Positions 3 to 44,549 of a stretch of 64,000 nucleotides of DNA are shown piece after piece. The translations under genes were made by a program, and so were the position numbers. The stretch is from a virus (lineage: Duplodnaviria; Caudoviricetes). Position 1 is the stretch's first letter, and every line of letters begins with the position of its first letter. A model generated the notes under the pieces. It ran no database searches. It saw only the letters and a program-made list of their open reading frames with translations, and had not been told where the DNA came from. The stretch covers positions 32,001-96,000 of IMG/VR virus record IMGVR_UViG_3300037400_002699. One strand, written 5' to 3'.

Positions 3-722
3 CTTGCTAATAGAATCAACGAAGCATACAGGAAGGAAGAAAACATCAAGACGACGTTTCATGGTACAAAGCCTTCCACTGAGAAGGGTTTATTCAAGAG
101 AATAAATGACCTAACGAAGAATGGGCAGCTTAATACAAGGTTATTTGGCGGTGTGTCTGATGCCCTTGATTTCTACAGGAGAATCCTTGGTAAAATTGGC
201 AATCTTAGGTGTGTTGATGCCTGTGAAGGTAATAATTACGTTGTTAAGCTTGATACTGAAGGCGGGCTTAGTTATTTAGGCCTTATGAGAATTAAGGATG
301 CTGAAGAAGGTAAGTGCAAGGCTAGTATTACATTCTCCCCACACGCTGATGCGAACGATGGTGTTGAACCAGAGGAATCAGAGCCTACAATTGAGGATGA
401 CTTTGATTATGAGGATACTCCAAATAAATACGGAACTGTTCAAAACGATAGAAACTATGAGATTTATGGAGAAGGAAGAATCACCAGGATGACTGGTAGT
501 GAACTTCACAATCTTATCAAGGAATCTGTAAAAAAGCTGCTTAAAGAAGAGGAAAGTTCATATAGGGGTATCTATATACAGGGCTTAGGATTGCCAGAAG
601 AGTGGCTAATGCGTAAGATTGACTGGGCTTTTGATGAGAAGGGTTATTCACCAAAGCAAGTTCAGTGGATGGTTGACTGGTTGGCACATGAGACTTCTAA
701 TGATGAAAATTATAGGCGTTAA
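3..722 (+). CDS. 5'-truncated hypothetical protein with an internal copy of the putative head-targeting motif
   Basis: The frame is open from position 3, so the gene starts before the window. It contains ITRMTGSELHNLIKESVKKLLKEE near the C-terminus, followed by a ~50 aa domain. Confidence 0.75.
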   Translation, partial: LANRINEAYRKEENIKTTFHGTKPSTEKGLFKRINDLTKNGQLNTRLFGGVSDALDFYRRILGKIGNLRCVDACEGNNYVVKLDTEGGLSYLGLMRIKDAEEGKCKASITFSPHADANDGVEPEESEPTIEDDFDYEDTPNKYGTVQNDRNYEIYGEGRITRMTGSELHNLIKESVKKLLKEEESSYRGIYIQGLGLPEEWLMRKIDWAFDEKGYSPKQVQWMVDWLAHETSNDENYRR

Positions 723-733
723 TTTTGAATGCT

Positions 734-976
734 ATGATATCAGAGAATATAATAAACAATATAATCAGTGAGTCCATTAATCTTGTTCTTGAGGGAAAGA
801 GCAGTATTCACATCAAGAAAAAGAACAAGGGAAAGTTCAATGCCTTGAAGAAGAGGACTGGAAAGTCCACTGAGGAGTTGACTCATTCGAAGAACCCGTT
901 GACCAGGAAGAGGGCCGTGTTTGCTCAAAATGCTAAGAAGTGGTCCCACAAAGGCAGGAAAAATAAAAAGAGTTAA
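734..976 (+). CDS. Small very basic protein with degenerate head-targeting leader (possible DNA-binding internal protein)
   Basis: ATG at 734 (ORF track starts at TTG 725). Leader MISENIINNIISESINLVLE, then a K/R-rich domain; a hairpin terminator follows. Confidence 0.65.
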   Translation: MISENIINNIISESINLVLEGKSSIHIKKKNKGKFNALKKRTGKSTEELTHSKNPLTRKRAVFAQNAKKWSHKGRKNKKS

Positions 977-1169
977 GGAGAGACCTTAACTCTTTTTTCA
1001 TGCCTTTACGGTTATACTTACTTTTGTCCTTGTAGACACGGTTCATTGAAACAAATTGACCGCCGCCATTGCGTTCAAATTGTTCATCACGGCTAATCAT
1101 CCTCAGTATCTTGTACTGTTCCGTGCTCTTCGTTGGTTTACTTTTTTTACACATCTTGGAATCCTCCAT
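933..1169 (-). CDS. Hypothetical basic protein
   Basis: Last ORF of the minus-strand operon, coupled to 1147..1845. Its 3' end overlaps the convergent gene and the terminator. Confidence 0.5.
   Translation of the reverse strand: MEDSKMCKKSKPTKSTEQYKILRMISRDEQFERNGGGQFVSMNRVYKDKSKYNRKGMKKELRSLLNSFYFSCLCGTTS
965..998. terminator. Intrinsic terminator between convergent genes
   Basis: AAAAGAGTTAAGG-AGAGA-CCTTAACTCTTTTTT inverted repeat with A/T tails. Confidence 0.7.
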
Positions 1170-1845
1170 CTTCTGTTAGTATAAACGCTTTTCTGCAATC
1201 AAGGCAAGCCCATGTCTTTGTTATGACTGGGCGTTCCTCCTGTTGTGAATGCCCGAATATCTGGTAAATTCCATCAATATCCTCACTATCCCCTTTTTCT
1301 GCGATGTCAGACCATACTATGCTGCCTATTCTACCAAAGCCGCCTCTTTCTCTTGATACCTGCATAAGTATCTCAGTTCCTTGTCTAAGTCCTTTAAGTT
1401 TATTAAGATTCTCAGCATTAAGGTCTCCTATCAGCTCCTTATGCTGCTCATACCATGACTTCAATACACCTGCATGTGTGAACAGATAATGCTTGTCCCC
1501 CTCATATTCATAAGCAAGCTGGAACAGCCCCCTATTGTTATTAAAGAGTCTATTTATAGACCATGCATGACTTGAGTCGTATCTTGACCTTGTTCTGAAG
1601 TTGCTATCGTAGTATTGATAGTCATGATTTCCAAGAAGCAATATGACCTTATCTGTATGAGCCTTCTTATACTCTATTATATCAGCGAAGTTATTGATTG
1701 CACCCCTCCTGGTGATACCCTCCCAGTTATATGGGTCAAGGTAGTCGCCAAGGAATACGATTTTATCACGCCCCTCAGCATGTCTTTCAACGGCATCTTT
1801 CCAGAACGTCCTACCATGTACATCACCTATTATAAGTATACTCAT
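1147..1845 (-). CDS. Calcineurin-like metallophosphoesterase
   Basis: GDVHG, GDYLD, GNHD, HAG and GHS motifs. Confidence 0.9.
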   Translation of the reverse strand: MSILIIGDVHGRTFWKDAVERHAEGRDKIVFLGDYLDPYNWEGITRRGAINNFADIIEYKKAHTDKVILLLGNHDYQYYDSNFRTRSRYDSSHAWSINRLFNNNRGLFQLAYEYEGDKHYLFTHAGVLKSWYEQHKELIGDLNAENLNKLKGLRQGTEILMQVSRERGGFGRIGSIVWSDIAEKGDSEDIDGIYQIFGHSQQEERPVITKTWACLDCRKAFILTEDGGFQDV

Positions 1846-1894
1846 ATTTTCTTTATGTTATTAGCTCTTTTATTTTTTTATATTTTCTATTTTT

Positions 1895-2536
1895 TTATTT
1901 GGTTTTTTTCATCCACATTTTCATATTTTCTTTCTCTTTTATTTGAGATTGGATTTTAAAGTTCAAATCTAGCCAAGATATTGGGGCATAATCGTTAAAG
2001 TCAACACCAACATCATATTGTGTTGGAAATTCATACTTTAAGACTCGTTCTATATCTAAACCTTTTGGACTGTTTCTAGATAGGTGAACGTGTCCATGAC
2101 ACTGGTACACCAGTCCCTTCGGGTCACGATAAGTACCTCCGTAACATAGGAATGGTACATGATTAAGGTAAACCTTCCTTCCCTCAATCTCCACCTTCAT
2201 CTGAAAGGTTACATAGTCAAATAGCTCCTTTTCTGCTGTAGGTGTCATATTCTTCTCATCGTGGTTTCCCTTGATAAGAATAATGTTACCATTAAGCTGG
2301 CTTCTGATATTCTTCCAGAACGGGTATCCACCCCAAGCAAAATCCCCAAGGTGGAAGACCAATCCATCCGCTGGTACTTTCTTATTCCAGTTTTCAATGA
2401 GCTTGTAGTTCATTTCCTCCACGTCCTTGAACGGGCGGTTACAGAACTCAATGATTCGTTCATGACCCCAGTGAGTATCTGACGTTAGAAATATCTTAGA
2501 GCCATCTGGATATTTTATATCAATATTCTCTTTCAT
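1895..2536 (-). CDS. Calcineurin-like metallophosphoesterase (phage phosphoesterase type)
   Basis: SDTHWGH, HLGDF, KGNHD, GHVH and DVGVD motifs. Confidence 0.9.
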   Translation of the reverse strand: MKENIDIKYPDGSKIFLTSDTHWGHERIIEFCNRPFKDVEEMNYKLIENWNKKVPADGLVFHLGDFAWGGYPFWKNIRSQLNGNIILIKGNHDEKNMTPTAEKELFDYVTFQMKVEIEGRKVYLNHVPFLCYGGTYRDPKGLVYQCHGHVHLSRNSPKGLDIERVLKYEFPTQYDVGVDFNDYAPISWLDLNFKIQSQIKEKENMKMWMKKTK

Positions 2537-2540
2537 TGTG

Positions 2541-2572
2541 CAAAGTTATATATTTTTTTTCTGAAAAACAAA
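2541..2572 (-). promoter_or_regulatory. Bacteroidota-type sigma promoter (-33 TTTG / -7 TAACTTTG)
   Basis: Plus strand CAAAGTTA 2541-2548 and CAAA 2569-2572, 20-nt spacer. Confidence 0.7.
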
Positions 2573-2591
2573 AAATCGTGGTTAAAGTCTG

Positions 2592-3452: not shown

Positions 3453-3454
3453 AG

Positions 3455-5580: not shown

Positions 5581-5595
5581 CTTTTTCTTTTAGTG

Positions 5596-5627: not shown

Positions 5628-5640
5628 TTTATCAAAACAA

Positions 5641-11295: not shown

Positions 11296-11335
11296 CAAAG
11301 ATATATGTATTTTTTCTAAAATACAAGTATTTATA
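11296..11335. promoter_or_regulatory. Back-to-back promoters: host-type (minus strand) and TATTTATA late-type (plus strand)
   Basis: CAAAGATA 11296-11303 with CAAG 11324-11327 (20-nt spacer); TATTTATA 11328-11335 upstream of 11393. Confidence 0.7.
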
Positions 11336-11392: not shown

Positions 11393-11779
11393 ATGAAAAA
11401 GGTAATTAGATTAACAGAAGGTGACCTTCACAAGATTGTGAAAGAGTCGGTTAAAAAGATATTGAAGGAGTATAATTTCAATGCTGTTCGCAGTGTTGAA
11501 ACAAAGCTGAAGATGGCTGCTGCAAAAGCTCAATATGGAAGATATAATGAGGCTGCTAGAATGATAGAGGAGGCATCGGAGCTTGTTGAACAGTACAACG
11601 ACAAACTAATCCAAGCATTAGGTGAAGACGAGTATGAGCAACTAGTTAAGATACTAGATGCAATGGTTCGCCCAATGCCCGTAGACGGAAAAATTCTATT
11701 GAGGCTCATAACCAAGGCATTGGCTATCATAAAGAATGGATATAAGACAGATGATAAAATTGAATTTGGTGAAATATAA
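11393..11779 (+). CDS. Putative internal head protein with head-targeting leader
   Basis: Begins MKKVIRLTEGDLHKIVKESVKKILKE; late-type motif upstream; helical payload. Confidence 0.75.
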   Translation: MKKVIRLTEGDLHKIVKESVKKILKEYNFNAVRSVETKLKMAAAKAQYGRYNEAARMIEEASELVEQYNDKLIQALGEDEYEQLVKILDAMVRPMPVDGKILLRLITKALAIIKNGYKTDDKIEFGEI

Positions 11780-12323: not shown

Positions 12324-12713
12324 TTACTTGATGTTCCTCAAGAAGTCGTAACTTGTCAGATTTCCAAGCTTAAGCTTTGGTGACCTGTTGTACCAATCCT
12401 TGGCAATCTGGAGGAACAATCCCTTTCTTTCTAACTCATTTGCTATTAATTTATGATAATTTTCTTCTGATTCTAGTTGGTCTACCACATCGTCAATCCA
12501 TGCGGACTCACTAGTTGGTATTCCGTTCATTAACTTTACGAACACGGCAAGAGGCTTCATCGTGCCATTGCTATTCTTACCCTGGTACTGACCCTGCGTG
12601 TAGTTATCGTCCAAGAATTTCTTCACCATGAGAATCTTGTCTGCATATGATTCATTGATAATCTGCCTTTTGACAGTATCGAAAGCTCTTTCTGATAATA
12701 TTATCTTCTTCAT
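12324..12713 (-). CDS. Putative internal head protein with degenerate leader
   Basis: MKKIILSERAFDTVKRQIINES; TATTTAT motif at 12733-12739 on minus strand. Confidence 0.7.
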   Translation of the reverse strand: MKKIILSERAFDTVKRQIINESYADKILMVKKFLDDNYTQGQYQGKNSNGTMKPLAVFVKLMNGIPTSESAWIDDVVDQLESEENYHKLIANELERKGLFLQIAKDWYNRSPKLKLGNLTSYDFLRNIK

Positions 12714-28322: not shown

Positions 28323-28326
28323 CATA

Positions 28327-28389: not shown

Positions 28390-28887
28390 ATGAAAGTATA
28401 CGTTAAGAAAGATAAGGTATTGAAGCTTCTTGGAGAAGGTAAGGTGTTCTCAAAGAAGGATTTAATTTTAAGAGAATTTGGTGGAGACACTAATAGCAGT
28501 GATGACGACACTGTTTCAATAAACCTATCACCAGATAATACCAATAAAAACCCATCACAGTTATCACAAAACGCAATAACTGCAAGAAATACAGTAACAG
28601 CACCTGGTAAAAAAATTGTCGGAAATGTTCCTGTTGAAGATGTCAATGGTGTTACTGCTCCAACATTATCACAGAATGACCCTGGTAACGATATGACAAT
28701 TGACTCATCAGATAATACCAGCACAGGCATAAAGAATGCAGCAGTTGCTGCTTCTAAGGCTAGGGTTGGTTCTGTTACAGTTCCAATTAAGGATTCTGTA
28801 AAGTCAAAGAAGGTTATGGATGAAATGAGAGCCAATTCAATACCATTTACAAAGTCAGAGTTAACAAAGTTTCTAAAGAGTCTTTAA
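28390..28887 (+). CDS. Hypothetical late protein
   Basis: TATTTAT 28368-74 upstream; TAATG coupling to the next gene. Confidence 0.7.
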   Translation: MKVYVKKDKVLKLLGEGKVFSKKDLILREFGGDTNSSDDDTVSINLSPDNTNKNPSQLSQNAITARNTVTAPGKKIVGNVPVEDVNGVTAPTLSQNDPGNDMTIDSSDNTSTGIKNAAVAASKARVGSVTVPIKDSVKSKKVMDEMRANSIPFTKSELTKFLKSL

Positions 28888-31800
28888 TGAAAAAGATATA
28901 CATCAACGAAAGTCAAATTAATAAGGAACTACTGCTTCCAAAGTTCCTCTTTGATGCAGTGGTTAAACATGAGACCTCCCTTGGGGATAATCCAGCATTC
29001 CCAGAGGAGGATGACTACCCGTTTGACTATACTGTTCTGAAAGAGGGGTTCAAGGATGTATGCGAACAGATGAAGGATGTTGGTATACCTATAACTAGCA
29101 CTGATGATATGGTATCAGAACTTGGTGCTATGGTCAATATGGCGAAGGAGCTGGAAAAGCCTGTAAGGGATTCACTTACAAAGATTTGCGAGAATGCAAT
29201 CAACAGGCTGTTTGCAATACCAGAGGGTGCTGTAAACATAAGATGCAGGCTTGTTGACAAGGTTACATATGGTAGCTCAATAGGAGTTACTCCAGAGATT
29301 TCCACCGACAGAAAGTTTAGATTTAAGGATATAAAGGACTTTGGTTTATCAAAGGCTGCAATTGCCAAGAGAAGACTTATTAATTCCCTTATTATGGGTG
29401 CTTCGGACTTTTACATGTCAATGATTACGTTGTACCAGGAAGACATTAATAAGCTTAATCCAGAACTTCTCGGACTGTATGACAAAATAATAACGCTTAA
29501 CAGGTATCTTACATTTGTCCTTGATGAAGAACTAAGTGATGAGAAGCCAAAGCAGGGGTCATTTGTGGAAGTACATGTTGGAAGTAACGGTAAGAAGAAT
29601 ACAATAGATGCACAGGGTGTCATATTCCCATTGCTATTCCATGACTTAATTAAGGGATTCTTCGAGCTATTTTCAGTTCATGGTTTGCCTCTTGATGGCG
29701 AGAAGGCTAAATATATAATCGGAAAGTCTGATTTCCTTCTTGCTGAGCCTTGGGATATGAGGTTTGGAACAAAGTTATGGCAGCTTATCTTTGATAGGCT
29801 GGAACTTGCTGAGGATACAAATATTGTACCTTATGTTTTTATGGAACTCGTTAAGCTGCCAACTGAAGAATTTAACCCAGTTATGCAGGAGTTGTTTATG
29901 CAGACTGAGAAAGGTGATGAAATCATTGGTAAGCTTATTGAGAAGTCAAGGTATAACGATGGATACCAGAAGTTCCAGAATAGGATTAATGCCAGAAATG
30001 TAGATAGGTCGATGATTGCTGATAGCTATTTCACTGCTTCTGAACTAGATGGATACGATATTGATGGTGAGGAAGATGGAGACGTTATCCAAGAGGATAT
30101 AATCACAGAATCCCAGGAATCTAAGTCAATATCTGCCGCAAAGAAACTTGTAATGCAGAAATTTGGATATGATGAGCAAGAAGCGGACGAATTTGTTAGA
30201 ATAAAGTTAAGAAACGACATACCATCTCTAAGAGATGTAGCCGCTAAGTTTACACTTGGTGTGACAAGAATGTTTTGTGACTATGAGTTGGAAGACGCTA
30301 ATACGATAAATAGGCTAAACAGAACACTAAAAATTGTTGGTTCTGAAGCGCATATTAATGAATATGATAGAAATCTCAACGGACTGTCAGCAGATGAACT
30401 CATAGACAGATTCTCACAGGCAATGACAGATAATGTTAATGCTGAGAGGGAACAAGATTCTAAGTTTATACCTGTTAAGCCCTCTGAATATACTATAGTA
30501 AAAATAGATTCATATAAGCAAGCCACTAAATATGGTAAATATACAGACTGGTGTATCACACATTATAAAAATAATTATGATAACTATACATGTAACGGTA
30601 TAAACCAGGTGTATTTTTGTTTAAAACCTGGTTTTAATAAACTATTAAGGAAAAAAGGAAGTAACTATCCACTCGACGAATATGGTTTATCAATGATTTC
30701 TGTTATCGTGGACGAGGACGGAGGACTTGCTTATTGTACATGTCGTTGGAATCACGGTGATGAGAATGATGGCTCATGTGATGACAGTGTTATGGACTAT
30801 AACGGCATTAGAGAACTGATGCAGGTTAGGTTCTTTGACACCTTTAAACCAAATAATAAGTGGAAGGAGTTTATTAGTTCGACGATGGAACGCCTTGCAC
30901 GAGGAGAAAACCCAGCAGACGTATTTGATTATTATGCTTATACAAATCTAGGATTTAGTGTAGTAGGTTTCGAAGAACTGGAGAGATATAATGTTATTGA
31001 TAAAGAAAACAATTTCATATCTGATAAATGGTATGTTTCCATTAAGCTTAACAATATTGGTGTTTTCATTGTTGAAGATAGTTCATATAAAAAGAGTTAT
31101 ATGGATTTAAATGGTAATGTAATATCAGAGAAATATAACGATATTGAAATTGACACTTATGACGGTTTGGCTATTGTTAGGAGAGATAGAAAATATAATT
31201 GGATTAAGCCGAATGGTGAAAGATTAAATAATGATTGGTATAATTGGGTCGGTAATTTTAAATACGGCCCAGCTCAAGTAGGTTCTGAAAAAGGAAAGAA
31301 TTTTGTTAACACCAACGGTGAATTAATGTGTAAAAGATGGTACGATGATATACACAGCATGACACTGAATAAAGATGGCACAATGGTAACGTTAGGTAAT
31401 AAAACAAATTACATTGATGCTAATGGTAATGAAATATCCAGTGAGTGGTTTGATGGAGGTTTCTATCGTTTTAACTATGGCTTTGTTGGTGTGTATAAAA
31501 ATTATGGTAACAACGTTACCCGTGCTAATTTTATTGACACTAAAGGAAATCTTTTATGTGATAAATGGTTTAAATCAATTATTAAAGATTTTAATAGAAA
31601 TGGAATTGCTGAGGTTACTGATGAACATGAAATGTTATATACAATAAACAGACGTGGAAAAATCACTAACACTGGAAAATATTATGGTGATTGGAAAGAA
31701 TATTCTGCTGACCCAGAATGTGTTAAAAAAGAAGTTAACAAGTTTGATACCCTTTTATATTACTTGATGACAGATGGGCAATGTAATTTATCATGTGCAG

Positions 31801-31901
31801 ACGTATCTTTCCATGAATGGCTTATACAAAATTATCCAAGTTTGAATTATTCTGTTTATTTTACAAATAAGTATTTTACAGAATTTTATAAAAAGAGATA
31901 G
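28887..31901 (+). CDS. Multidomain putative internal head protein with C-terminal WG-like repeats
   Basis: Leader MKKIYINESQINKE; acidic linker ending IITES; WCIT-containing domain; repeated N(F/Y)IDxxGxxxxxxW(F/Y). Confidence 0.7.
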   Translation: MKKIYINESQINKELLLPKFLFDAVVKHETSLGDNPAFPEEDDYPFDYTVLKEGFKDVCEQMKDVGIPITSTDDMVSELGAMVNMAKELEKPVRDSLTKICENAINRLFAIPEGAVNIRCRLVDKVTYGSSIGVTPEISTDRKFRFKDIKDFGLSKAAIAKRRLINSLIMGASDFYMSMITLYQEDINKLNPELLGLYDKIITLNRYLTFVLDEELSDEKPKQGSFVEVHVGSNGKKNTIDAQGVIFPLLFHDLIKGFFELFSVHGLPLDGEKAKYIIGKSDFLLAEPWDMRFGTKLWQLIFDRLELAEDTNIVPYVFMELVKLPTEEFNPVMQELFMQTEKGDEIIGKLIEKSRYNDGYQKFQNRINARNVDRSMIADSYFTASELDGYDIDGEEDGDVIQEDIITESQESKSISAAKKLVMQKFGYDEQEADEFVRIKLRNDIPSLRDVAAKFTLGVTRMFCDYELEDANTINRLNRTLKIVGSEAHINEYDRNLNGLSADELIDRFSQAMTDNVNAEREQDSKFIPVKPSEYTIVKIDSYKQATKYGKYTDWCITHYKNNYDNYTCNGINQVYFCLKPGFNKLLRKKGSNYPLDEYGLSMISVIVDEDGGLAYCTCRWNHGDENDGSCDDSVMDYNGIRELMQVRFFDTFKPNNKWKEFISSTMERLARGENPADVFDYYAYTNLGFSVVGFEELERYNVIDKENNFISDKWYVSIKLNNIGVFIVEDSSYKKSYMDLNGNVISEKYNDIEIDTYDGLAIVRRDRKYNWIKPNGERLNNDWYNWVGNFKYGPAQVGSEKGKNFVNTNGELMCKRWYDDIHSMTLNKDGTMVTLGNKTNYIDANGNEISSEWFDGGFYRFNYGFVGVYKNYGNNVTRANFIDTKGNLLCDKWFKSIIKDFNRNGIAEVTDEHEMLYTINRRGKITNTGKYYGDWKEYSADPECVKKEVNKFDTLLYYLMTDGQCNLSCADVSFHEWLIQNYPSLNYSVYFTNKYFTEFYKKR

Positions 31902-31962: not shown

Positions 31963-33843
31963 ATGATATACGATAGACACGAAATGGCCGTTGAATATGC
32001 GACCTGCTATGCGGATAAATCCAGGATTACTTTCATTGAGAAGTATTTCAGTACCTTCAACGCCATGAAGGGAAAGAAGACGCAGTTTCATTGTTTCCCA
32101 AGACAGAAGGCTTTCCTAAAAGCTCTGGCTGAGAACAGGAACGTTGTAGCTGTTAAGCCAAGACAGTGCGGTATTACCACCCTGTCAAGTGCTTGGGCAG
32201 CAGCGCAGTGTGCGTTTGCCCCTAAGGATGCTCCAGAAACAATACTGTGTATCGCTAATAAACTTGAGCAGGCGCAGGAAATCATTATAAAGGTTAGGGA
32301 CTTCCTGGAACAAGTCCCAAGATGGTATTGGGGTGATGAGTACTTTTCACCAGACCCTAATTCAGAGAAAAACATTAAATCTATATTCGAGAAGGACGCT
32401 AAGGGTGAGTTGAAATTGTTCAACAAATGCAGGGTTATTGCTCGTGCATCAGGTCCTAATGCAGCTCGTGGTATCTCAGCTGTATCAGTACTTATTCTTG
32501 ACGAGGCTGCGTTTATTGAGGAGGGCGTGGCAGCATTTACCACAGCTGCTGCTACAATGGCTTCTAACCCTAATTCTAAGACTGTCATGGTGTCAACACC
32601 TAACGGTAAGGATGAGTTGTACTACAACACCTATAGACAGGCTCTGAGTCACGAAAATAACTTTGTGGCAGTACAGTTTCGTTGGTATCAAGACCCACGT
32701 TTCAATAAGTACCTTGTATGGAAGAAGAAGAATGAGGAGACTGGTGAATGGATGTTTGACCAAGACCCTATAGTTGACGAGGAAGGTGGAGTCAAGTACG
32801 ACGAGGAAAGATGGGCTAGACTTGAGCACGACGGATGGACACCAGACGCTCCTTGGTATGATGAAATGTGCAAACAGTTCAACAACGACTCGATGAAGAT
32901 TGCACAGGAGCTTGACGTGTCGTTCATGGGTTCTTCTGATAACGTTATCGCACCAGAGTACATTGAAATGCAGGATAAGCTCAATGTAAGAGAGCCACTT
33001 GATGATTTTAAAGACCCGCTTGTAGAGGAGACTTGGTTCTGGAAGCAGCCGATAGAGGGGCACAGGTACATATGCGCAGTTGACCCTTCAAGGGGTACAG
33101 CAGCCGATAGAACAGCCATAGAGATTATCGATATGGATGGTAGGGATGACAACGGAATGCCTATCATTGAACAGGTTGCTGAATACGTTGGAAAGAGGCT
33201 TGGTGACGATATAGGTGCTATTGCTTATCAGTATGCTACAATGTATAACGACGCTTTCGTTGTCGTAGATGCTACTGGAGGACAGGGTGATGCCTGTATC
33301 ATTACGATGCTTCAGATGGGCTACAAGAACATGTACTACGAGGATATGAATCAGAAGACGTATATGTTGCAGAGAGCTACGAAGGTCTATGACAGCTATA
33401 CAGATAAGCTTCCTGGTTTCCACTTCCAGGGTAACAGATATCCAGTATTGGCTAACTTCGCTGGATTGGTTAGAAACAATGAGTTTAAGATTAGGTCTGC
33501 AAGGGTTATTAATGAGCTTGACACCTGGATATTCAAGGGTGACAATGCGAGGATGGACCACATGGATGGTGCTCATGATGATACGATTACGTCTCTTGCT
33601 ATGGGACTGTTCGTCATGCAGTACTCATTCAACAGGCTGCTTAGCACCGTTAAGAAGGATAAGGCAATACTTAGTTCATACATGATGACAAATTCATTCC
33701 ATGTAAGTAAACCTAAGATGGAAAACGGAAAGAGTATAGCACCAGGTATAGGTCTGCCATTCTATAAGCAAGATAAGATGAAGAATAATTATGGCAGCAT
33801 ACAATATGGGAACTATATGTGGATTTTTGGTGGCATGAAATAA
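31963..33843 (+). CDS. terL: Terminase large subunit (T4 gp17-like)
   Basis: KPRQCGITT Walker A variant; LILDEAAFI Walker B; STPNG coupling motif; VDPSRG and HDD nuclease residues. Confidence 0.92.
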   Translation: MIYDRHEMAVEYATCYADKSRITFIEKYFSTFNAMKGKKTQFHCFPRQKAFLKALAENRNVVAVKPRQCGITTLSSAWAAAQCAFAPKDAPETILCIANKLEQAQEIIIKVRDFLEQVPRWYWGDEYFSPDPNSEKNIKSIFEKDAKGELKLFNKCRVIARASGPNAARGISAVSVLILDEAAFIEEGVAAFTTAAATMASNPNSKTVMVSTPNGKDELYYNTYRQALSHENNFVAVQFRWYQDPRFNKYLVWKKKNEETGEWMFDQDPIVDEEGGVKYDEERWARLEHDGWTPDAPWYDEMCKQFNNDSMKIAQELDVSFMGSSDNVIAPEYIEMQDKLNVREPLDDFKDPLVEETWFWKQPIEGHRYICAVDPSRGTAADRTAIEIIDMDGRDDNGMPIIEQVAEYVGKRLGDDIGAIAYQYATMYNDAFVVVDATGGQGDACIITMLQMGYKNMYYEDMNQKTYMLQRATKVYDSYTDKLPGFHFQGNRYPVLANFAGLVRNNEFKIRSARVINELDTWIFKGDNARMDHMDGAHDDTITSLAMGLFVMQYSFNRLLSTVKKDKAILSSYMMTNSFHVSKPKMENGKSIAPGIGLPFYKQDKMKNNYGSIQYGNYMWIFGGMK

Positions 33844-33903: not shown

Positions 33904-35949
33904 ATGGCTAAGAAGAAACCTACAGTCTTCCAAGCCCTTGACAGGGCAATTACTGGTAACTGGAAATCACCAACTGATGCTATTGCACCACACGTTAATT
34001 CGTATGACCTATCAGAGCCTAAGGGTAAGGTGCTTTACACTACCGATAACAAGGAAGATTATTTACAGAAAAAGCTAGAGCTTCAGCAGGATAAGTTTCT
34101 CAAGGAAAGATGGGTTAAGGCTAACGTTAACCTGTCAGTTTCAGCATATGCAGGCTTGAATAATGTTAAGCTGATGTATCGTGATGCTGAGCTGATGGAT
34201 GCATTCCCAGAGATAGGTGCTGCACTTGACATTGTGTCAGAGGAGAGTACCATTGTGAATGATAAGGGAATGGTGGTTAACGTATATTCTAAGTCAGACA
34301 GAATACGTAACATTCTTGAGGATTTGTTCGTCAACAGGCTTAACATACAGCTTACTGGACAGATGATTATCCGTGCTATGTGTAAGTACGGAAACCAGTT
34401 TATGTTGCTGGATATTGACCACAAGAACGGTATCAAGGGATGGAAGCAGATGCCAGTATTCAATGTGGAGAGAATTGAGAATGGTATACAGAACCCATAC
34501 GGACAGGCTATGTCAATAGCTGTTAACAATGTGGTATTGAAGGACAACGACTTGTCAACACAGTTCGTTTGGATTGACGACAACCAGTCACAGATTCCAT
34601 TTAGGGACTGGCAGGTTGCACACTTCAGACTACTTACCAACTCACTCTATCTGCCTTACGGTGTTAGCTACTTGAATGCTGCACGTAGGCACTGGAGAAT
34701 GCTGTCACTCATGGAGGATATGATGCTTATCTATCGTCTTGAGCGTTCAATTGAAAGACGTGTGTACAAGATATTCGTTGGAGCTATCGATGATGCCGAT
34801 GTACCAGCATACATAGAGCAGATTGCAAATGAGTTTAAGAGAACCCCAATCATCGACCCAATCACAGGACAGGTTGACTTGAGAAAGAACATCTTGTCAG
34901 TTGACCAGGATATATTTATACCAGTTCGTGATGAGAACGCTCCTACGCCTATTGACACGCTCTCTGCTGCACAGAACATGACAGCCCTTGATGACATTAA
35001 GTTCGTACAGAATAAGGTGCTCACAGCCCTTAGAATACCTAGGTCGTTCTTGAACTTCGACGAGGCTGCTGGAGAGGGTAAGAACCTTGCACTTATGGAT
35101 ATAAGGTTTACAAGGACAGTCAACAGGATACAGCAGGCATTCTTGATGGAGCTTACCAAGGTTGCTACAATTCACTTGTTCTTGCTTGGCTTCGATGATG
35201 AGTTGACCAATTTCACATTATCAATGAACAACCCATCAACACAGGCAGAACAACTTGAGATTGAGAATATGCAGAAGAAGATTGACGCTGTTAGGGATGC
35301 TGTATCAGACCCAGGTAACGGTCTACCAGTAATGTCACAGACTCGTGCATTGAAACAGATTATGAAATGGTCTGACAAGGAAATCAAGGAGAACCTTGAG
35401 GAGATACGTCTTGAAAAGGGTATTGCTGCTGAACTTGAGAAGACGGCACAGATTATTAAGAAGACTGGTATCTTTGATACGGTTGATAGAATCTATGGTG
35501 AACCAGGAGCAGAGTACATGGACGACCAGCAGGGCGGTATGCCAGGAGCAGATGGCGGTGCTGGTGGAGGAGGAGGTATGGGAGCACCACCACCTCCAGC
35601 AGCTGACTTCGGAAGTGAAATGGATGCAATGGGAGCACCTGGAGCTGATGATAGTGGGGATATGGCAGGACAGGAAGGCTCAATGCCTACTGCTGACATG
35701 ACACCAGACCAGACAGGACAGGCAAATGAAAGTACCAGAAGGAATAAGAAGATAATTAATGAGCAGTCTAACTTATTTGAACAGTATCTTTCTTCACTGA
35801 CTGGACATACCCATTCACCTAAGGAGACGAAGTATGAGAGGGCTAAGGTATATGATAGTGAGTCACTACTTGTAAATGAGGAGTTCGACAACATGATTAA
35901 TGCCCTTGGAAAGTTTGTTGACGATAAGGATGCAGAGGACGAGATATAA
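33904..35949 (+). CDS. Portal protein (T4 gp20-like) with Gly/Pro/Asp-rich C-terminal extension
   Basis: YRDAELMDAFPEIGAALD, LMEDMMLIYRLERSIERRVYKIFVG, IDTL, DDIKFVQNKVLTALRIP, DIRF. Confidence 0.92.
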   Translation: MAKKKPTVFQALDRAITGNWKSPTDAIAPHVNSYDLSEPKGKVLYTTDNKEDYLQKKLELQQDKFLKERWVKANVNLSVSAYAGLNNVKLMYRDAELMDAFPEIGAALDIVSEESTIVNDKGMVVNVYSKSDRIRNILEDLFVNRLNIQLTGQMIIRAMCKYGNQFMLLDIDHKNGIKGWKQMPVFNVERIENGIQNPYGQAMSIAVNNVVLKDNDLSTQFVWIDDNQSQIPFRDWQVAHFRLLTNSLYLPYGVSYLNAARRHWRMLSLMEDMMLIYRLERSIERRVYKIFVGAIDDADVPAYIEQIANEFKRTPIIDPITGQVDLRKNILSVDQDIFIPVRDENAPTPIDTLSAAQNMTALDDIKFVQNKVLTALRIPRSFLNFDEAAGEGKNLALMDIRFTRTVNRIQQAFLMELTKVATIHLFLLGFDDELTNFTLSMNNPSTQAEQLEIENMQKKIDAVRDAVSDPGNGLPVMSQTRALKQIMKWSDKEIKENLEEIRLEKGIAAELEKTAQIIKKTGIFDTVDRIYGEPGAEYMDDQQGGMPGADGGAGGGGGMGAPPPPAADFGSEMDAMGAPGADDSGDMAGQEGSMPTADMTPDQTGQANESTRRNKKIINEQSNLFEQYLSSLTGHTHSPKETKYERAKVYDSESLLVNEEFDNMINALGKFVDDKDAEDEI

Positions 35950-36967: not shown

Positions 36968-37333
36968 ATGGCAAAGAAATTAATAAGGTTAACAGAAAGT
37001 GACCTCCATAGGATTGTAAAGGAATCTGTGAAAAGAGTTATAAGATTGACCGAGGCTCAAGAATACCCACCAGAATTTATTGAATGGTTAAATAGTCCAG
37101 AACAAGGTGGTTATTATTGGAATTTTAATGAAAAACCAGAATGGCAGAAACGCAATATTTACCAAATGTATCAACAAGAAATGGCTGAAAAGAATTTTAC
37201 AGACGGCATGAGGGTTGGTAATAGACAAGGATTTAGAAATAAAGATACTGGCGAGATAGAATGGCATGGTGAAAGAAGCATAAATGGCTGGCCAACAGAA
37301 GGACCAACAAGGTGGACACCGCCAACTAAATAA
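36968..37333 (+). CDS. Putative internal head protein with head-targeting leader
   Basis: MAKKLIRLTESDLHRIVKESVKRVIRLTE followed by a unique payload. Confidence 0.8.
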   Translation: MAKKLIRLTESDLHRIVKESVKRVIRLTEAQEYPPEFIEWLNSPEQGGYYWNFNEKPEWQKRNIYQMYQQEMAEKNFTDGMRVGNRQGFRNKDTGEIEWHGERSINGWPTEGPTRWTPPTK

Positions 37334-37363: not shown

Positions 37364-37681
37364 ATGGCAAAGAAATTAATTAGATTAACAGAGAATGACC
37401 TTCACAGAATAGTGAAGGAGTCTGTTGGTAAGATATTGAAAGAAATAGATTTGAATCCAAACCCAAGTCAGTCTTCAAAGGAAGACGTTGATTATGGAAT
37501 ACCGCCATATACTGTTGTTGTGGGAGGCATAATGGAAGGGGAACCTTTTGATGATATTTACGATGCAATAGAATATGCTGAACAATGGGACAATTATATA
37601 ACAAATTCTGGCGAACACAAAAACATCACAATATATGATGAAAACGATGAAGACGTTTGGAGTATTAGGCATTTTGGATAA
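37364..37681 (+). CDS. Putative internal head protein with head-targeting leader; acidic payload
   Basis: MAKKLIRLTENDLHRIVKESVGKILKE followed by an unrelated D/E-rich payload. Confidence 0.8.
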   Translation: MAKKLIRLTENDLHRIVKESVGKILKEIDLNPNPSQSSKEDVDYGIPPYTVVVGGIMEGEPFDDIYDAIEYAEQWDNYITNSGEHKNITIYDENDEDVWSIRHFG

Positions 37682-37833: not shown

Positions 37834-38271
37834 ATGAAGAAGTTGAGGAAAGAGTATAAGTTAGATGTATGTAACCACATTGTTTTGAAATACGGGACGG
37901 TTAATAGGGACAACCCACAGGTTATATACATTTCTGGAAAATGCTGGGTTTGTCCCCTACACCAAATGGATTATCCAAAGGTGGTATCAAATATTGAAAA
38001 GGAAATGAGGAAGAACATCAAGAACATTATGACTGATGGTGTCAATTTTGACAAGAAGTTTATACTGGATTTTGATGTAAATTCTGAGAGGTTATCACCA
38101 TCGCACAAGATGTTCCTGTCGTTTGATTTCTACTTGAGGCAGAACGAAAAGAACAAGAAGGAACTTGCATCACTCCAGTCATTATTGAGGGGAAAGGTGA
38201 GTACAATATCAAATAATCTGGTGTATTCCTTTAGGGAAAACGATTTTCAGATAGAAAAGAAGAAGCAATGA
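37834..38271 (+). CDS. Hypothetical protein in head module
   Basis: 145-aa ORF, alpha/beta-like composition. Confidence 0.7.
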   Translation: MKKLRKEYKLDVCNHIVLKYGTVNRDNPQVIYISGKCWVCPLHQMDYPKVVSNIEKEMRKNIKNIMTDGVNFDKKFILDFDVNSERLSPSHKMFLSFDFYLRQNEKNKKELASLQSLLRGKVSTISNNLVYSFRENDFQIEKKKQ

Positions 38272-38297: not shown

Positions 38298-38531
38298 ATG
38301 AGCAAGATTGTAAATATATCAGAAGAGAAATTCAGAAAGGCACTTAGAAGTATTGTAAAGGAACAAGAAGACGTATATAACAATTATGAAGTGTTTAATG
38401 ACCAGGAAAATGCCATACCTAATCCAAATGACAGAACATTAGATAATCACGAGGAGAGTACCGCTGGGGTGAATAATATAGACCAAACTGTGTACGAGCC
38501 AGATGGTAACAAGGATATTGAAAATCCATAA
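38298..38531 (+). CDS. Small acidic protein with head-targeting leader
   Basis: MSKIVNISEEKFRKALRSIVKE; TATTTAT 38274-80 upstream. Confidence 0.65.
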   Translation: MSKIVNISEEKFRKALRSIVKEQEDVYNNYEVFNDQENAIPNPNDRTLDNHEESTAGVNNIDQTVYEPDGNKDIENP

Positions 38532-39260: not shown

Positions 39261-39274
39261 TACATTTTTTTAAT

Positions 39275-39399
39275 ATAAATATTTCGCAGTCTTTAAATAT
39301 TTATATAATAGACTATTTAATCATGGATATGCGGAAATGGCTGTAAATCAACTTTTTTAAGGGATTTACAAAGTTTTTTTGTATTTGTGGTATATTTAT
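39275..39399. promoter_or_regulatory. Divergent late-type TATTTAT promoters for protease and scaffold
   Basis: ATAAATA 39275-81 (minus-strand copy); TATTTAT 39298-304 and 39393-99 (plus). Confidence 0.6.
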
Positions 39400-39433
39400 A
39401 TTTAAAAATAATAACGTATTTAAACTATTTTCT

Positions 39434-41038
39434 ATGAGCAAGATTAGAAGCAAAGTAGTAAGGGAATCTTTATTGGATTACAATACACTCGCAAATTCTT
39501 TGAAGGAAAATACGGAGAGCGCAGTCAAGACTCTTCTTGATGAGGCTGTGCGTGATACATATGCCAAGTTATTGTCTGAAGACAATGACAAGGACTATGA
39601 TGAAGAGGATGTAGAAGTGGATGATACTCAAGATTCTGATGCTATGCCAGATGACGCTGGAGAAGGCGGCGAAGAGTCTACAGATGATGTGGATGACGCT
39701 GACGCTGGTATGGACACTGACGATGTTGATGACACTGACGTTGATGGTGGTGACTCTTTCAAGGGTGGCGATGCTAATACTGAGGTTGATGAAACTGAAG
39801 ACGGTGAAGGCGATGGATGGGCTGAGTTTGACAAGTACAAGGTATCGGACGACGAGTATGACTTCTCAAATGCGGAAGACGAGGAAATCGTAAAGGTTTA
39901 CAAACTGATGAAAAATGATGACCAAATTCTCGTACATAAAGACGAGGACAAGGTTAAGATTCAAGACAATGAAACTGGAGCTGAATACCTAATCGACCTT
40001 GGTGGTGATGAGGCAGCTGGCGTAGCTGCTACTGAACCAGGAGAAGACGAGGCAAATTTTGAACTTGAAATGGGTGATGATGATGCTGAGGACTTTGAAG
40101 GCGATGCTGAAGGCATCGATACTGAGGGAGACGAAGATATTGATTCTATGGTTGATAGTGAAGGTGAAGATGATGATTTTAATAACATTGATGACGATAT
40201 GAATGAATCAACAGAAAGAATGTTTGAGCTTGTATTGGAGTACGACTCAAACGTAGGATACACTGACAACTATCAGAAAAAGGACGTAATGACCAACCCA
40301 GGCATGTCAGAGCCAGGCAAGAATGTAAACGACTGGGATGCAGGCGTACCAAAGGGCGATGCAAAGCCTTGGTCTGGATATCCAGGTAAGAAGAAGAAAG
40401 CAGACGCACCTTTCAATGCTGAAAAGGGCAAGCAGGTTGAGGAGAGTGTTGAGGAAATCAACGAGCTTAAGACAAATGCTGAGCACGCTGCTAACAACGG
40501 TAGCACATCTAGGACTGATGGACCTAATAACCCACGTAGGCGTACTGGACGTAGTTTCCATACTGCACAGAGGGGACAGGAAAGCGGAACTGGAGACAAT
40601 GCTTATTCACCAGGTGGTGATGCAAACAACGTGACGGTTGATGTTAAGGTTGAGAACATTATGAGGAGAGTTAATAAGACCCTTAAGGAAAATAAGGAGT
40701 TAAAGGGTACTCTTACAAATGTGATGACATCTCTTAAGGAGGCTGCTGTAACCAACCACAATCTTGCACAGATTATTAAGCTTATCTCTGAGAACTCTAC
40801 CACACAGGATGAGAAGAAGGAGATAATCGGAAGGTTTGCTAAGGAGGCTAAGACCATCGATGCTTCAAAGAGGTTGTATGAGTCTATCAGCCAGGACTTG
40901 AAAAAGTTACATAAGATGAACATCACTGAGGGCACAAACCTTACAGTTGAGAGTTCAAAGAAAATCAATGAGACTCCAATTTACAAGTCACAGGACATCA
41001 TGGAATCTCTTGACCTTATGCACAGGATGATGAAATAA
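39434..41038 (+). CDS. Prohead scaffold/core protein (T4 gp22-like position)
   Basis: Directly upstream of the capsid gene; very acidic N-half, coiled-coil C-terminus; many [ILV]xE sites. Confidence 0.8.
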   Translation: MSKIRSKVVRESLLDYNTLANSLKENTESAVKTLLDEAVRDTYAKLLSEDNDKDYDEEDVEVDDTQDSDAMPDDAGEGGEESTDDVDDADAGMDTDDVDDTDVDGGDSFKGGDANTEVDETEDGEGDGWAEFDKYKVSDDEYDFSNAEDEEIVKVYKLMKNDDQILVHKDEDKVKIQDNETGAEYLIDLGGDEAAGVAATEPGEDEANFELEMGDDDAEDFEGDAEGIDTEGDEDIDSMVDSEGEDDDFNNIDDDMNESTERMFELVLEYDSNVGYTDNYQKKDVMTNPGMSEPGKNVNDWDAGVPKGDAKPWSGYPGKKKKADAPFNAEKGKQVEESVEEINELKTNAEHAANNGSTSRTDGPNNPRRRTGRSFHTAQRGQESGTGDNAYSPGGDANNVTVDVKVENIMRRVNKTLKENKELKGTLTNVMTSLKEAAVTNHNLAQIIKLISENSTTQDEKKEIIGRFAKEAKTIDASKRLYESISQDLKKLHKMNITEGTNLTVESSKKINETPIYKSQDIMESLDLMHRMMK

Positions 41039-41107
41039 GCATTTTTTGAATTTTGTGTATATTTATAATTAAAGAAAAATAACATAAGTTAAACTTCATT
41101 TATCTAT

Positions 41108-43144
41108 ATGAAAGAATTTTTATCTAGTGGCGTAGTTGGTAATATTGAGTACAACGCCCAGAAACAGATACGTGAGAGCATTCAGAACCGTTGGGACCAG
41201 CTCGGATTTACTGAGGGTCTTCCAGAGGGTATCAAGGAGAATGTTGCTACGTTGTATGAGAATGAGGCTAAGCACTTGATTTATGAGGCTACAGCTTCTG
41301 ACAATAGCGGTTCATTCGAGACTGTGGTATTCCCTATCATCCGTAGGGTATTCAGCAGACTTCTTGCTAATGACATCGTTTCAGTACAGGCTATGAACCT
41401 TCCTGTAGGTAAGTTGTTCTTCATCCTCCCTGTTACTTCAGAGAGAGAGTGGGAGCTTCCAGCAGAGATGACTGGCGACACTGAGCCTGGCGATATTGTA
41501 GACGGAACAACTGGTCGTCACCTTGGTCTTATGGGTTATGACAGAGTTAACCGTAACAAGGAAGGACGTGTTGAGCCACGTTACTATCTCCCAGACGAGA
41601 CAATCAATGAGCTTCAGAATGCATGGTACATCCCAGTTCTTAGCGACGAGGATACCTATGATACATTCGACGCTGCTAAGGAAGCTGCTATTGCAGCTGG
41701 TCTTAACCCAACAGCTATTCGTAGAGTAGGACCAGAGGTTACTCAGTACTTCCAGAAGAGTCTTTACGACTTGTTCTACAATGACTTCTTGTATGACAAC
41801 TCAAAGGGTAAGGTTACTATTAAGGTTGGTGAGGCTATCCCAGTATTCTTGACCCCTGGTGGTGTTCGCCCATTCGGTGCTGACAACTTGAATCAGTACT
41901 TCCAGAGTGGATTTGACGGAACTATCCGTAACGTCATCCTTGAGATTGATGGTTTCTCTTCATTCAACGCTTCTAAGTTGACTGGTCCTGACGGAAACGA
42001 AATGGACACTGAGGAGTTCCTTGCTTCATTGAAGGTTATCACACAGAAGGCTATTGCAGCTCAGAATGCTCCTGGTTCAGAGGACGTTAAGACTTCTGCT
42101 TTCAGAAAGTTTGAGTCTGTTCCATTCAGAGTAGTTACTCAGAAGTATGGTAAGGGTATCGTAGAGTACGGTGCTGCTTGCGACGCAGAGGGTAAGATGT
42201 ATATCGAGCTTGACCTTGCTAAGCCAGTTATCCAGCAGGCTGGAACAATCGATGGTTACATCGGTGTTGCTGCTTCAGAGCTTGACGCTGCAATTGTTAA
42301 GAGTGGAAACACTATTGACTACGAGGCAACTAAGGAGAATATCAAGTCTTTGTTCAAGATTGCTTGGGCACAGTATGATTCTCTTGAGCTTGAGACTGAA
42401 ATCGGTGAGGTTTCATTCAAGTTGGATTCAGTAACTGTATCAGTTGTAGAGAGAAAGCTTCGTGCTACCTGGTCTCCAGAGCTTGCACAGGACGTTTCTG
42501 CATTCCACAACATCGACGCAGAGGCTGAGTTGACAGCTATCCTTTCAGAGCAGATTGCTGCTGAGATTGACCGTGAGATTCTCCGTGACCTTAGAAAGGG
42601 AGCGCCTTGGCAGGCACGTTGGGATGTCAATGGTTGGAGGAGAATGGCTGCATTCTCTACAAACTACACCCAGAAGGACTGGAATCAAGAGTTGATGACT
42701 AAGATTAACCAGATTTCTGCACAGATTCACAAGTCTACACTTCGTGGTGGTGCTAACTTCATCGTTGTATCTTCAGAGATTTCTGCATTGTTCGATAACT
42801 TGGAGTTCTTCCACGTATCTGACGCTTCAGCAGAGAGCGACCAGTACAACATGGGTATCGAGAAGATTGGAGCACTTAACGGACGTTACACCGTATATCG
42901 TGACCCATATTCTCCACACTGGTCAATCATCATTGGTCACAAGGGTAAGTCACTTCTTGACACTGGTTACATCTATGCACCATATGTGCCAATGCAGTTG
43001 ACTCCTACAATGTACAACCCATTCAACTTCGCACCCGTAAAGGGGATAATGACGAGGTACGCTAAAAAGATGGTAAATAATCGTTACTATGGACATGTTC
43101 GTGTAGACGGTCTCGTACATTGGAGCATCAACGAATTCAGATAA
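41108..43144 (+). CDS. Major capsid protein (T4 gp23-like)
   Basis: FPIIRRVF...DIVSVQAMNLPVG; RKLRATWSPELAQD...DAEAEL..ILSEQIAAEIDRE; YIYAPYVP...GIMTRYA. Confidence 0.95.
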   Translation: MKEFLSSGVVGNIEYNAQKQIRESIQNRWDQLGFTEGLPEGIKENVATLYENEAKHLIYEATASDNSGSFETVVFPIIRRVFSRLLANDIVSVQAMNLPVGKLFFILPVTSEREWELPAEMTGDTEPGDIVDGTTGRHLGLMGYDRVNRNKEGRVEPRYYLPDETINELQNAWYIPVLSDEDTYDTFDAAKEAAIAAGLNPTAIRRVGPEVTQYFQKSLYDLFYNDFLYDNSKGKVTIKVGEAIPVFLTPGGVRPFGADNLNQYFQSGFDGTIRNVILEIDGFSSFNASKLTGPDGNEMDTEEFLASLKVITQKAIAAQNAPGSEDVKTSAFRKFESVPFRVVTQKYGKGIVEYGAACDAEGKMYIELDLAKPVIQQAGTIDGYIGVAASELDAAIVKSGNTIDYEATKENIKSLFKIAWAQYDSLELETEIGEVSFKLDSVTVSVVERKLRATWSPELAQDVSAFHNIDAEAELTAILSEQIAAEIDREILRDLRKGAPWQARWDVNGWRRMAAFSTNYTQKDWNQELMTKINQISAQIHKSTLRGGANFIVVSSEISALFDNLEFFHVSDASAESDQYNMGIEKIGALNGRYTVYRDPYSPHWSIIIGHKGKSLLDTGYIYAPYVPMQLTPTMYNPFNFAPVKGIMTRYAKKMVNNRYYGHVRVDGLVHWSINEFR

Positions 43145-43171
43145 TAAATAACTGAAAATCAATAACTTACA

Positions 43172-43207
43172 AAGGTTGCCAAGTCAATAGATTTGGCAAC
43201 TTTTTTG
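43172..43207 (+). terminator. Intrinsic terminator after capsid gene
   Basis: GTTGCCAAGTC-AATA-GATTTGGCAAC-TTTTTTT. Confidence 0.8.
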
Positions 43208-43366
43208 TTTTTTAATCCATTTTAACTTGAAAAAATATTATAAGTTAGAATGGATTATTTTTTATATAGGAATGAAATTAAATGGATTATTTTGATATTT
43301 ATATAAAAAAAGTTGGTTTAGAAAGAAACTAATGTTGTTTTTTAGAGATAAAACGTTATATTTTAT

Positions 43367-43753
43367 ATGCAGTACTTTTATATTAAACAGGGCAGTACAT
43401 TGCCAACACTTAGGATGGAGCTTATAGAGGATGGAAGACATGACTTCAACAAGTTCCATGAGTGCATACAGGCTGCTGACATAACTTTTACAATGACAAA
43501 TATTGACACCAACGTTGTGAAGGTAGCAAAGAACAAGGCATACATCAAACTACGTGAGAACGATGATTGCACTGAACAGTATGTGATATGCTATGACTGG
43601 AAAGGTCATGATACCAAGGAGGCTGGCAGTTTTAAGGGTGTATTTGAAATAACATTCAGCGGAAATATAAAGAATGATTCATATACCTACCCAAATGGCA
43701 TACTAAACGCACCAATAAGGGAAGAGCTTATGGTCATAGTTCTTCCTAAATAA
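43367..43753 (+). CDS. Ig-like structural protein (BppU N-terminal-like)
   Basis: FYIKQGSTLPTL...TFTM...YDW...DT..AG.F.G.FEITF beta-sandwich pattern. Confidence 0.55.
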   Translation: MQYFYIKQGSTLPTLRMELIEDGRHDFNKFHECIQAADITFTMTNIDTNVVKVAKNKAYIKLRENDDCTEQYVICYDWKGHDTKEAGSFKGVFEITFSGNIKNDSYTYPNGILNAPIREELMVIVLPK

Positions 43754-43773
43754 TTTGAATAAATTTTAATGTT

Positions 43774-44022
43774 ATGATTGAACCGAAATTTAATCCAGGT
43801 GATTATATTATAAACAGGACATCTGGAGATATGGCGATAGTTGACAAGGTTACTTCGAAGGGGTATTATCGTTTCAAGGCGTTTTATGGTAGCATGTTTA
43901 ATGAATTCAAAGATGTGAAGGATAAAAATTTTGATTTGCAGATTAATTATCAGAAGTTTTATGACCTGTGTAATGACGGTGAGAAGAAAAAACTCGATGA
44001 GTTAATAAAAGAGAAGGGATGA
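43774..44022 (+). CDS. Hypothetical protein (SH3-like N-terminus)
   Basis: PKFNPGDYI start; ATGA overlap with the next gene. Confidence 0.6.
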   Translation: MIEPKFNPGDYIINRTSGDMAIVDKVTSKGYYRFKAFYGSMFNEFKDVKDKNFDLQINYQKFYDLCNDGEKKKLDELIKEKG

Positions 44023-44549
44023 AAATAATAAGATTAACAGAGGGTGATTTACATAATATTGTTACAGAGGTTGTTGCGAACTTATGCGAATCATCAACCA
44101 GTGAAGTTGTCTTTCATTGTGGCGATGAACTAAACGAAAGGAGATTCAAGGATGTGATATGGTTTAGTTCTGAACCTATTGGTTATTTCGGTTACCCACA
44201 TAGATATGAGGTGACGATGAACAACCCACTTGTGATAAACGCATTTGGTGCTGGCTGGAATGACAAGTTATGGCGGGAGTGTTGTAAACCAACTGGTGAG
44301 CCAAAATGCCCTCCAGATGACCCAAGTCTTGTATCAAGAGCACCTGCCTTTATATGGAAAATGGTACAAGAGTCAGATGATGAGATAGAATATGGAGACA
44401 TACCTTACATAGTTAAGCATATGCGTAATGAGGGTAAGGTAAATTATGATGGGGTTATAATAAAAGAAATTTACGAAACGCCAACTTGTAATATTAAGAC
44501 TGATGACTATGTTGTTTTCAGCATGAAACAAATAAAACTAGTAAAATAA
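44019..44549 (+). CDS. ADP-ribosyltransferase-like protein with head-targeting leader
   Basis: MKIIRLTEGDLHNIVTEVVANLCE; then VFHCG...IWFS...NPLVI...YDGVII...DDYVVF. Confidence 0.65.
   Translation: MKIIRLTEGDLHNIVTEVVANLCESSTSEVVFHCGDELNERRFKDVIWFSSEPIGYFGYPHRYEVTMNNPLVINAFGAGWNDKLWRECCKPTGEPKCPPDDPSLVSRAPAFIWKMVQESDDEIEYGDIPYIVKHMRNEGKVNYDGVIIKEIYETPTCNIKTDDYVVFSMKQIKLVK

Follow-up and report, generated by a model that had tools for sequence, protein, structure and literature searches.

Why do several otherwise unrelated genes of one phage begin with nearly the same peptide? The question arises from a 64,000-nucleotide stretch of DNA (the window), which comprises bases 32001-96000 of the viral record IMGVR_UViG_3300037400_002699 (134,273 bp). 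An earlier note on this stretch had described a portable leader on about ten late genes, and had proposed that it carries arbitrary effectors into the prohead and is clipped there by a gp21-like protease. The analysis presented here gives roughly an even chance that this 26-residue peptide (the tag) serves as a prohead-targeting leader, functionally akin to the capsid targeting sequence (CTS) of phage T4. That reading is favoured because of the N-terminal position of the tag, the placing of its glutamates in a protease motif, the position of tagged genes in the head module, the late motif upstream of them and the turnover of the payloads that they encode. The proposal of a capsid-targeting leader clipped by a gp21-type protease fits every sequence-level test that was run; the number of copies had been overstated, and the idea of arbitrary effectors is unsupported.

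The leader and its copies

A tag profile was built from the peptides quoted in the earlier note and run on all six frames of the 134-kb record. Eight open reading frames (ORFs) matched it, with E values from 4e-7 to 1.5e-16, and the next best ORF had an E value of 6; the five quoted copies were recovered together with three more. Seven of the eight copies are N-terminal and one is internal. Five carriers are in the window, and the other three, at genome positions 22777, 106032 and 129114, all have the tag at the N-terminus. It is clear that the shared leader is real, and its solid count is eight because four of the degenerate copies that had also been listed are not significant and a fifth, at 734, is marginal (see below).

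In the window, translation and profile agree that four plus-strand genes open with the quoted peptides: 11393..11779 (128 amino acids (aa); tag at 11393-11470; E 4.7e-16), 36968..37333 (121 aa; tag residues 1-29, at 36968-37054; E 2.4e-15), 37364..37681 (105 aa; tag residues 1-27, at 37364-37444; E 3.2e-16) and 44019..44549 (176 aa; tag at 44019-44090, ending LCE; E 1.5e-16). The first of these is on the strand opposite to the neighbouring replication genes; the second, between the portal and protease genes, has the closing ILxE of its tag swapped for a second RLTE; and the orthologues of the last retain the tag. The fifth copy is internal, at about window 480-551, within the plus-strand frame 3..722 (E 7e-15). 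This frame is the C-terminal two thirds of a 371-aa protein (genome 31607-32722) whose N-terminal part weakly matches DUF5856, and the orthologue in a close relative, G005 (295 kb, with terminal repeats; capsid protein 90-91% identical to that of the window), also carries the tag internally. A weak tag-like stretch, IKFSESRIRRAVMESIMNLMNE (E 0.005), was seen inside the ORF at genome 129298-129687, which immediately follows the tagged gene at 129114, outside the window.

Over their first 21 codons the genes at 36968 and 37364 differ at ten synonymous sites and one non-synonymous site, as had been reported, and the payloads that follow the tags are indeed unrelated (best BLASTP E 0.014 in a nine-sequence database). 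Chance, or a repeat at the DNA level, is ruled out by the E values of 1e-16, the 10:1 synonymous ratio and the more than 6000 database clusters in which the tag is found.

The logo of 458 unique tags reads M-K-K-[LIV]-I-R-L-T-E-S-D-L-H-R-I-V-K-E-S-V-[NK]-[RK]-I-L-[KNR]-E, followed mostly by G, S, I or A. Glutamate occupies positions 9 and 26 in 99% of these tags and position 18 in 82%. Two residues before the invariant glutamates, position 7 is L in 94% and position 24 is L, I, V or M in 98%, which bears out the ending [ILV]-x-E described earlier, and the residue that comes next is mostly small. In an AlphaFold2 (AF2) model of the 37364 protein, made from an alignment of 92 sequences, residues 1-9 are extended and residues 10-29 form a helix; the confidence (predicted local distance difference test, pLDDT) is about 92 for residues 11-20 and about 50 for residues 31-60, after which there is a small payload domain. 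Logo and model together give an amphipathic helix of 20 residues with a hydrophobic stripe.

The tag also occurs beyond this phage. Run against 1.84 billion representative proteins, the profile gave 6007 matches at E<=0.001 and 763 at E<=1e-10. Among the 150 best matches 92 hold two to four copies, 52-293 residues apart, although this list is biased towards multi-copy proteins because the scores of their copies sum. Internal copies often stand directly after ES-K/R, and even after a Met. In 76 loci from IMG/VR, 142 of the 168 tags are N-terminal (no more than 8 residues from the first Met of the open frame), a further 16 have a Met at the start of the tag, and 10 are truly internal. Complete relatives hold 8-19 copies each. 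More distantly, in LR756508 (a 484-kb uncultured phage whose capsid protein is about 42-44% identical to that of the window), four small proteins open with the variant MRLTE-xx-LKKIVKEE-xx-VL-x-E. The genes for these proteins (L107-L110) are at 189658, 194329, 219849 and 243415; their tag begins straight at RLTE, and the protease of the S77 family in this genome lies within a 576-aa ORF.

The tag sequence is undescribed in Pfam, in PHROG and in the literature searched: no family of either collection matches it in the tagged proteins, their neighbours or 134 database matches, and full-text searches with substrings of the tag returned no paper containing it. Similarly, tblastn of one tagged protein against 50,697 phage records gave no tag match at E<=1.

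Genomic setting of the tagged genes

Two of the tagged genes are found among the head genes of the window. The large terminase lies at 31963-33843, a portal protein of the T4 gp20 type at 33904..35949 on the plus strand (PHROG 213, E 1.4e-64) and a major capsid protein of the gp23 type at 41108..43144, also on the plus strand (PHROG 138, E 3.9e-65). The gp21-like protease that had been placed at 38568 is present: the gene at 38568..39260 matches Peptidase_S77 at 87.4 bits, against a Pfam cut-off of 27, and the PHROG head maturation protease. It is on the minus strand, and is therefore inverted relative to the plus-strand head module, with a late motif of its own at window 39275-39281. In a further relative, G014 (349 kb; capsid protein 73-76% identical to that of the window), the protease forms the N-terminal part of a 608-aa ORF (L083:7807-9633). 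The plus-strand gene 39434..41038 is a candidate scaffold gene, in the position of T4 gp22, to judge from the gene order; its product is very acidic and kept in relatives, and matches no Pfam or PHROG family. The order is thus portal, a 311-aa gene, two tagged genes, a 145-aa gene, a 77-aa gene, protease, scaffold candidate and capsid protein, which may be compared with 20, 67, 68, 21, 22, 23 in T4. The 145-aa gene of unknown function (37834..38271, plus strand) has orthologues in G005 and in G004 (401 kb; capsid protein 82-83% identical to that of the window).

Since the record carries T4-type head genes and its complete relatives measure 295-412 kb, the source phage is on this evidence a jumbo phage of 300-400 kb with a T4-type head, of which the record (45% complete according to CheckV) is a fragment. 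The nearest cultured capsid protein is that of Flavobacterium phage immuto, with 38% identity. The head module had no match in the 50,697 phage records by megablast, and a single-protein scan of bacterial genome contigs matched one 4-kb contig of a metagenome-assembled genome, which does not point to a host.

The slot between portal and protease holds four tagged genes in G005, and in G004 no tagged gene and other small genes. The nearest tag is 0.1-1.7 kb from the protease gene in seven of the eight complete genomes that have an S77 protease, a proximity expected by chance in about 9% of cases per genome. In a widespread 141-aa family, the tagged gene overlaps the stop codon of the protease gene by 4 nt on the same strand. 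An S77 protease was found in eight of the ten tag-bearing records that are at least 90% complete, and also in the distant LR756508. In a census of the genes lying no more than 2.5 kb from a tag in the 76 loci, a homing-endonuclease-like gene was the most frequent (17 loci). Next came the 145-aa and 311-aa genes (16 each), the protease (15), a 1004-aa late gene (12), the scaffold (11) and the portal (10). Mobile genes aside, tagged genes have head genes, not enzymes, as their most frequent neighbours. The homing-endonuclease-like gene, with an opening such as MKRLTKEQFIEKARKIHGN.YDYSKV, is also present in this record, at window 53213-54577(-) and genome 120038-121039(-); it could help to drive the replacement of payloads.

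The timing of expression was approached through a shared upstream motif. The sequence (A/G)ATATTTATA is found at a distance of 8-65 nt before structural genes, those for terminase, portal, protease, scaffold and capsid included, and is rare before replication-type genes; from the genes that it precedes, we take it to be a late promoter. It stands before 35 of 178 genes overall (20%) and before all four isolated tagged genes, and the tagged genes inside the structural block belong to operons that it leads. In G005 it precedes both isolated tagged genes, compared to 57 of 474 genes overall (12%). The TATTTAT that had been pointed out is likewise in place, 58 nt upstream of 11393 (window 11328-11334) and 19 nt upstream of the minus-strand gene at 12713.

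In T4, gp21 cuts after the glutamate of L/I-x-E, and the internal proteins are targeted to the prohead core by a 10-residue CTS that is then removed (PMC9026906). The maturation site of the T4 capsid protein gp23 is FLTE|AEIGG (sequence from NC_000866). In a MAFFT alignment the column of this site holds IYE|AT in the window, G005 and G004, LKE|AT in G014, VSE|AN in immuto and LKE|AS in LR756508; for the window, the capsid protein would be cut at LIYE|ATAS, after residue 60. A glutamate-specific cut of the capsid protein looks conserved in the clade, because a hydrophobic-x-E|A sequence aligns with the gp23 site.

The payloads measure 47-294 residues; they are hydrophilic and acidic (pI 4.1-6.0) and have a high content of aromatic residues. 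In G005, whose capsid protein is 90% identical, all seven N-tagged payloads lack a homologue, whereas 58 of 110 other genes of 70-330 residues have one. The loci of T4 internal proteins likewise turn over fast (PMC9026906). Pfam and PHROG scans of seven tagged proteins from this record and of the 134 database matches found no payload domain above threshold, and the longer tagged proteins have no precomputed Pfam domain. The payload of 44019 matched ART-PolyVal at E 0.0095 and 17.1 bits, below the Pfam cut-off of 31.2; its Atlas feature score is 0.93 to a cluster in which 29% of the members have ART-PolyVal, with AcrIF11-type families also among the neighbours. Its AF2 model is poor (pLDDT 58.6), and on this model Foldseek against the PDB found nothing at E 0.001 and VIA-align reached a best Z of 2.5, so that neither rose above noise. 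An ADP-ribosyltransferase is thus a weak lead for this payload. That lead apart, no payload domain was recognised, which leaves the arbitrary effectors of the earlier proposal without support.

Degenerate copies and other N-terminal patterns

Degenerate versions of the tag had been described at 734, 12713(-), 21163, 28887 and 38298. A broader profile, made from 333 tag copies, was used here, and none of the five clearly passes it. The plus-strand gene 734..976 has a marginal tag-like N-terminus, MISENIINNIISESINLVLE (E 0.03). The 77-aa gene 38298..38531, also on the plus strand, has a short N-terminal ISE motif and no significant tag (E 9); it occupies the slot that three true tagged genes fill in G005, as judged by synteny, and has the late motif 17 nt upstream. 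The genes at 12713(-), 21163 and 28887 are not among the matches of the broader profile, nor did it detect the internal copy claimed within 21163. The first of these, 12324..12713 on the minus strand (129 aa), opens with MKKIILSE, and its G005 orthologue has kept this opening.

If only the shorter pattern [ILV]-x-[ILFM]-[STN]-E is required, anywhere in the first 12 residues, 12 of 178 genes qualify where about 1 would be expected; in the relative G005, which served as a hold-out, the figures are 13 and 2.5. The pattern was picked after the data had been seen, and its enrichment is therefore only suggestive. For the late protein of 1591 aa encoded at 21163-25938, the only PHROG matches are of unknown function, and Pfam gave no domain at E 0.01. 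Its N-terminus, MGKTIRFNE, agrees with the short hydrophobic-x-hydrophobic-[STN]-E form, as do three internal sites, but these do not fit the tag profile. Several late genes, in this phage and in relatives, begin with another N-terminal pattern, MK-x-I-K-I-N-E-S-Q-x-K-x-L (window 28887-31901; genome 107074-107850; L081:804-1658(-); L082:8506-8757). This pattern, possibly a sister leader that ends in INE, sits in G004 in the slot of the true tagged genes of this phage.

What the leader might do

From these observations we infer a course of events for the favoured reading. The tagged proteins would be made late. The leader, a short extended segment followed by the 20-residue amphipathic helix, would dock them on the scaffold core during assembly of the shell, and the S77 protease would then cut after the invariant glutamates of LTE (7-9) and IL-x-E (24-26), and perhaps of VKE (16-18). 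The freed payload would remain in the head, from which some payloads would exit with the DNA; the cutting of a protein with several tags would release several payloads. The N-terminus of the scaffold candidate (window 39434-39583), KVVRESLL...TESAVKTLLDE, is faintly like the KESVKKILKE of the tag; a profile-profile comparison of the tag with scaffold N-termini gave a probability of 3.5%, which is not significant.

The idea of targeting by a leader is not new, as T4 established the principle. Like the CTS, the tag stands at the N-terminus of proteins that are otherwise unrelated and evolve fast, it closes with hydrophobic-x-Glu, its genes are late, and it is found with a gp21-family protease and a T4-type order of portal, scaffold and capsid genes. 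The CTS, MKTYQEFIAE, has in common with the tag logo only the initial MK and the final hydrophobic-x-E, and the likeness is therefore one of analogy, not homology. The tag differs further in holding two or three candidate cut sites.

Several observations weigh against the favoured reading, and the first of them are other differences from T4. The tag has 26 residues, not 10, and no sequence similarity to the CTS; it is far more conserved, being present in more than 6000 protein clusters and in 8-19 genes per complete genome; it also occurs internally and in tandem within single proteins, many of them in the database; and its payloads are acidic, whereas the internal proteins of T4 are basic. 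A hydrophobic-x-Glu sequence is common to any amphipathic helix, and T-E-x-D at the start of a helix is also an ordinary helix cap. The S77-bearing genomes are close kin (where measured, their capsid proteins are 62-97% identical to that of the window), and so the co-occurrence of tag and protease counts as one or two independent events, not sixteen; with LR756508 included, there are about two independent lineages. Furthermore, no match to S77, S78 or ClpP was found in G030 (73 kb, 92% complete), whose one perfect tag is on a gene among early-looking small genes. G009 (317 kb) has 11 tags and no S77 or portal match; a ClpP gene there adjoins a weak tag. Finally, phage immuto, which is cultured and has the same head type, lacks the tag.

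The favoured reading can be carried further. The leader might be an address and cutting module that marks the whole set of packaged proteins in a clade of 300-480 kb phages, with thousands of unannotated payload families, and genes with several leaders might be "cargo trains" that the head protease would divide into separate payloads in the capsid. We regard this as possible, while leaning against it. Propeptides removed by proteolysis are known from head and ejection proteins of other giant phages: in SPN3US, phiKZ and 201phi2-1 the prohead protease takes them off the N-termini of several head proteins by cutting after glutamate, at the motif A/S/G-x-E (PMC10052503). Some of these propeptides have only 20-24 residues, and most have 111-254. 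Unlike the tag, these propeptides have no shared portable sequence.

Alternatively, the tag could be a helix for docking or oligomerisation with another common partner (a phage adaptor, a host protein, a membrane or another tagged protein), with no capsid loading or proteolysis. The 20-residue amphipathic helix with its hydrophobic stripe would suit such a role, and very high conservation would suit a single fixed partner; the internal and tandem copies, two to four and about 100 residues apart in the 92 of the 150 best matches, and the presence of the tag in G030 and G009, which have no S77 match, point the same way. This explanation does not account for the fact that both near-invariant residues are glutamates in a protease motif, nor for the maintained adjacency to, or overlap with, the protease gene, nor for the strict association with the late motif, and we consider it unlikely.

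It is also conceivable that the tag does target the prohead core and is cut, but that its carriers are disposable parts of the core, or parts that determine size, like gp67 and gp68 of T4, and are degraded and expelled before DNA entry instead of acting as effectors. Two tagged genes, between those for portal and protease, occupy precisely the position of gp67 and gp68. Like gp67, which is acidic, the payloads are acidic, hydrophilic and without a recognised domain in the Pfam and PHROG scans, and in T4 both gp67 and gp68 are small proteins cut by the protease. The tagged proteins have no sequence similarity to either, gp67 and gp68 have no leader in common, and the occupants of the slot vary here between close relatives. 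Complete turnover between phages with 90% identical capsid proteins would be unexpected of structural parts, as would scattering through the genome with individual late promoters, and one payload has the ADP-ribosyltransferase lead; we consider a purely structural role improbable.

A nucleic-acid-binding role is far harder to sustain. Here the tag would be half of a motif of the ribbon-helix-helix type, a beta strand followed by a helix: KKIIRLTESDLHRIV can be likened to the strand and first helix of CopG/Arc-type proteins, and one of the 134 database matches touched a RelB-like antitoxin model (E 0.00094). No ribbon-helix-helix model of Pfam matches any protein of the window at E 0.01, the AF2 model shows one helix, after which comes a stretch of low confidence and no further helix, and internal copies often do without the strand part; such a motif is very improbable. 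Last, a recognition leader for a modifying enzyme, as in ribosomally synthesised and post-translationally modified peptides and with a radical-SAM enzyme for example, is hardly credible, as G000, G005 and G004 have no radical-SAM gene, those of G008 and G014 are tens of kb from any tag, and the census of the 76 loci found head genes and the homing-endonuclease-like gene and no enzyme family.

If the tag is indeed a prohead-targeting leader, a single short profile would be enough to find, in rumen and gut-type metagenomes, those proteins of a large clade of uncultured giant phages that travel in the capsid and are possibly injected. The more than 6000 protein clusters concerned, which are unnamed in the databases, would then be an obvious place in which to look for new anti-defence and host-takeover functions, and for bringing foreign proteins into phage heads the leader would be an option that is longer and better defined than the T4 CTS. 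Were the more far-reaching "cargo train" interpretation also true, the single 26-residue profile would list candidate injected proteins straight from metagenomes.

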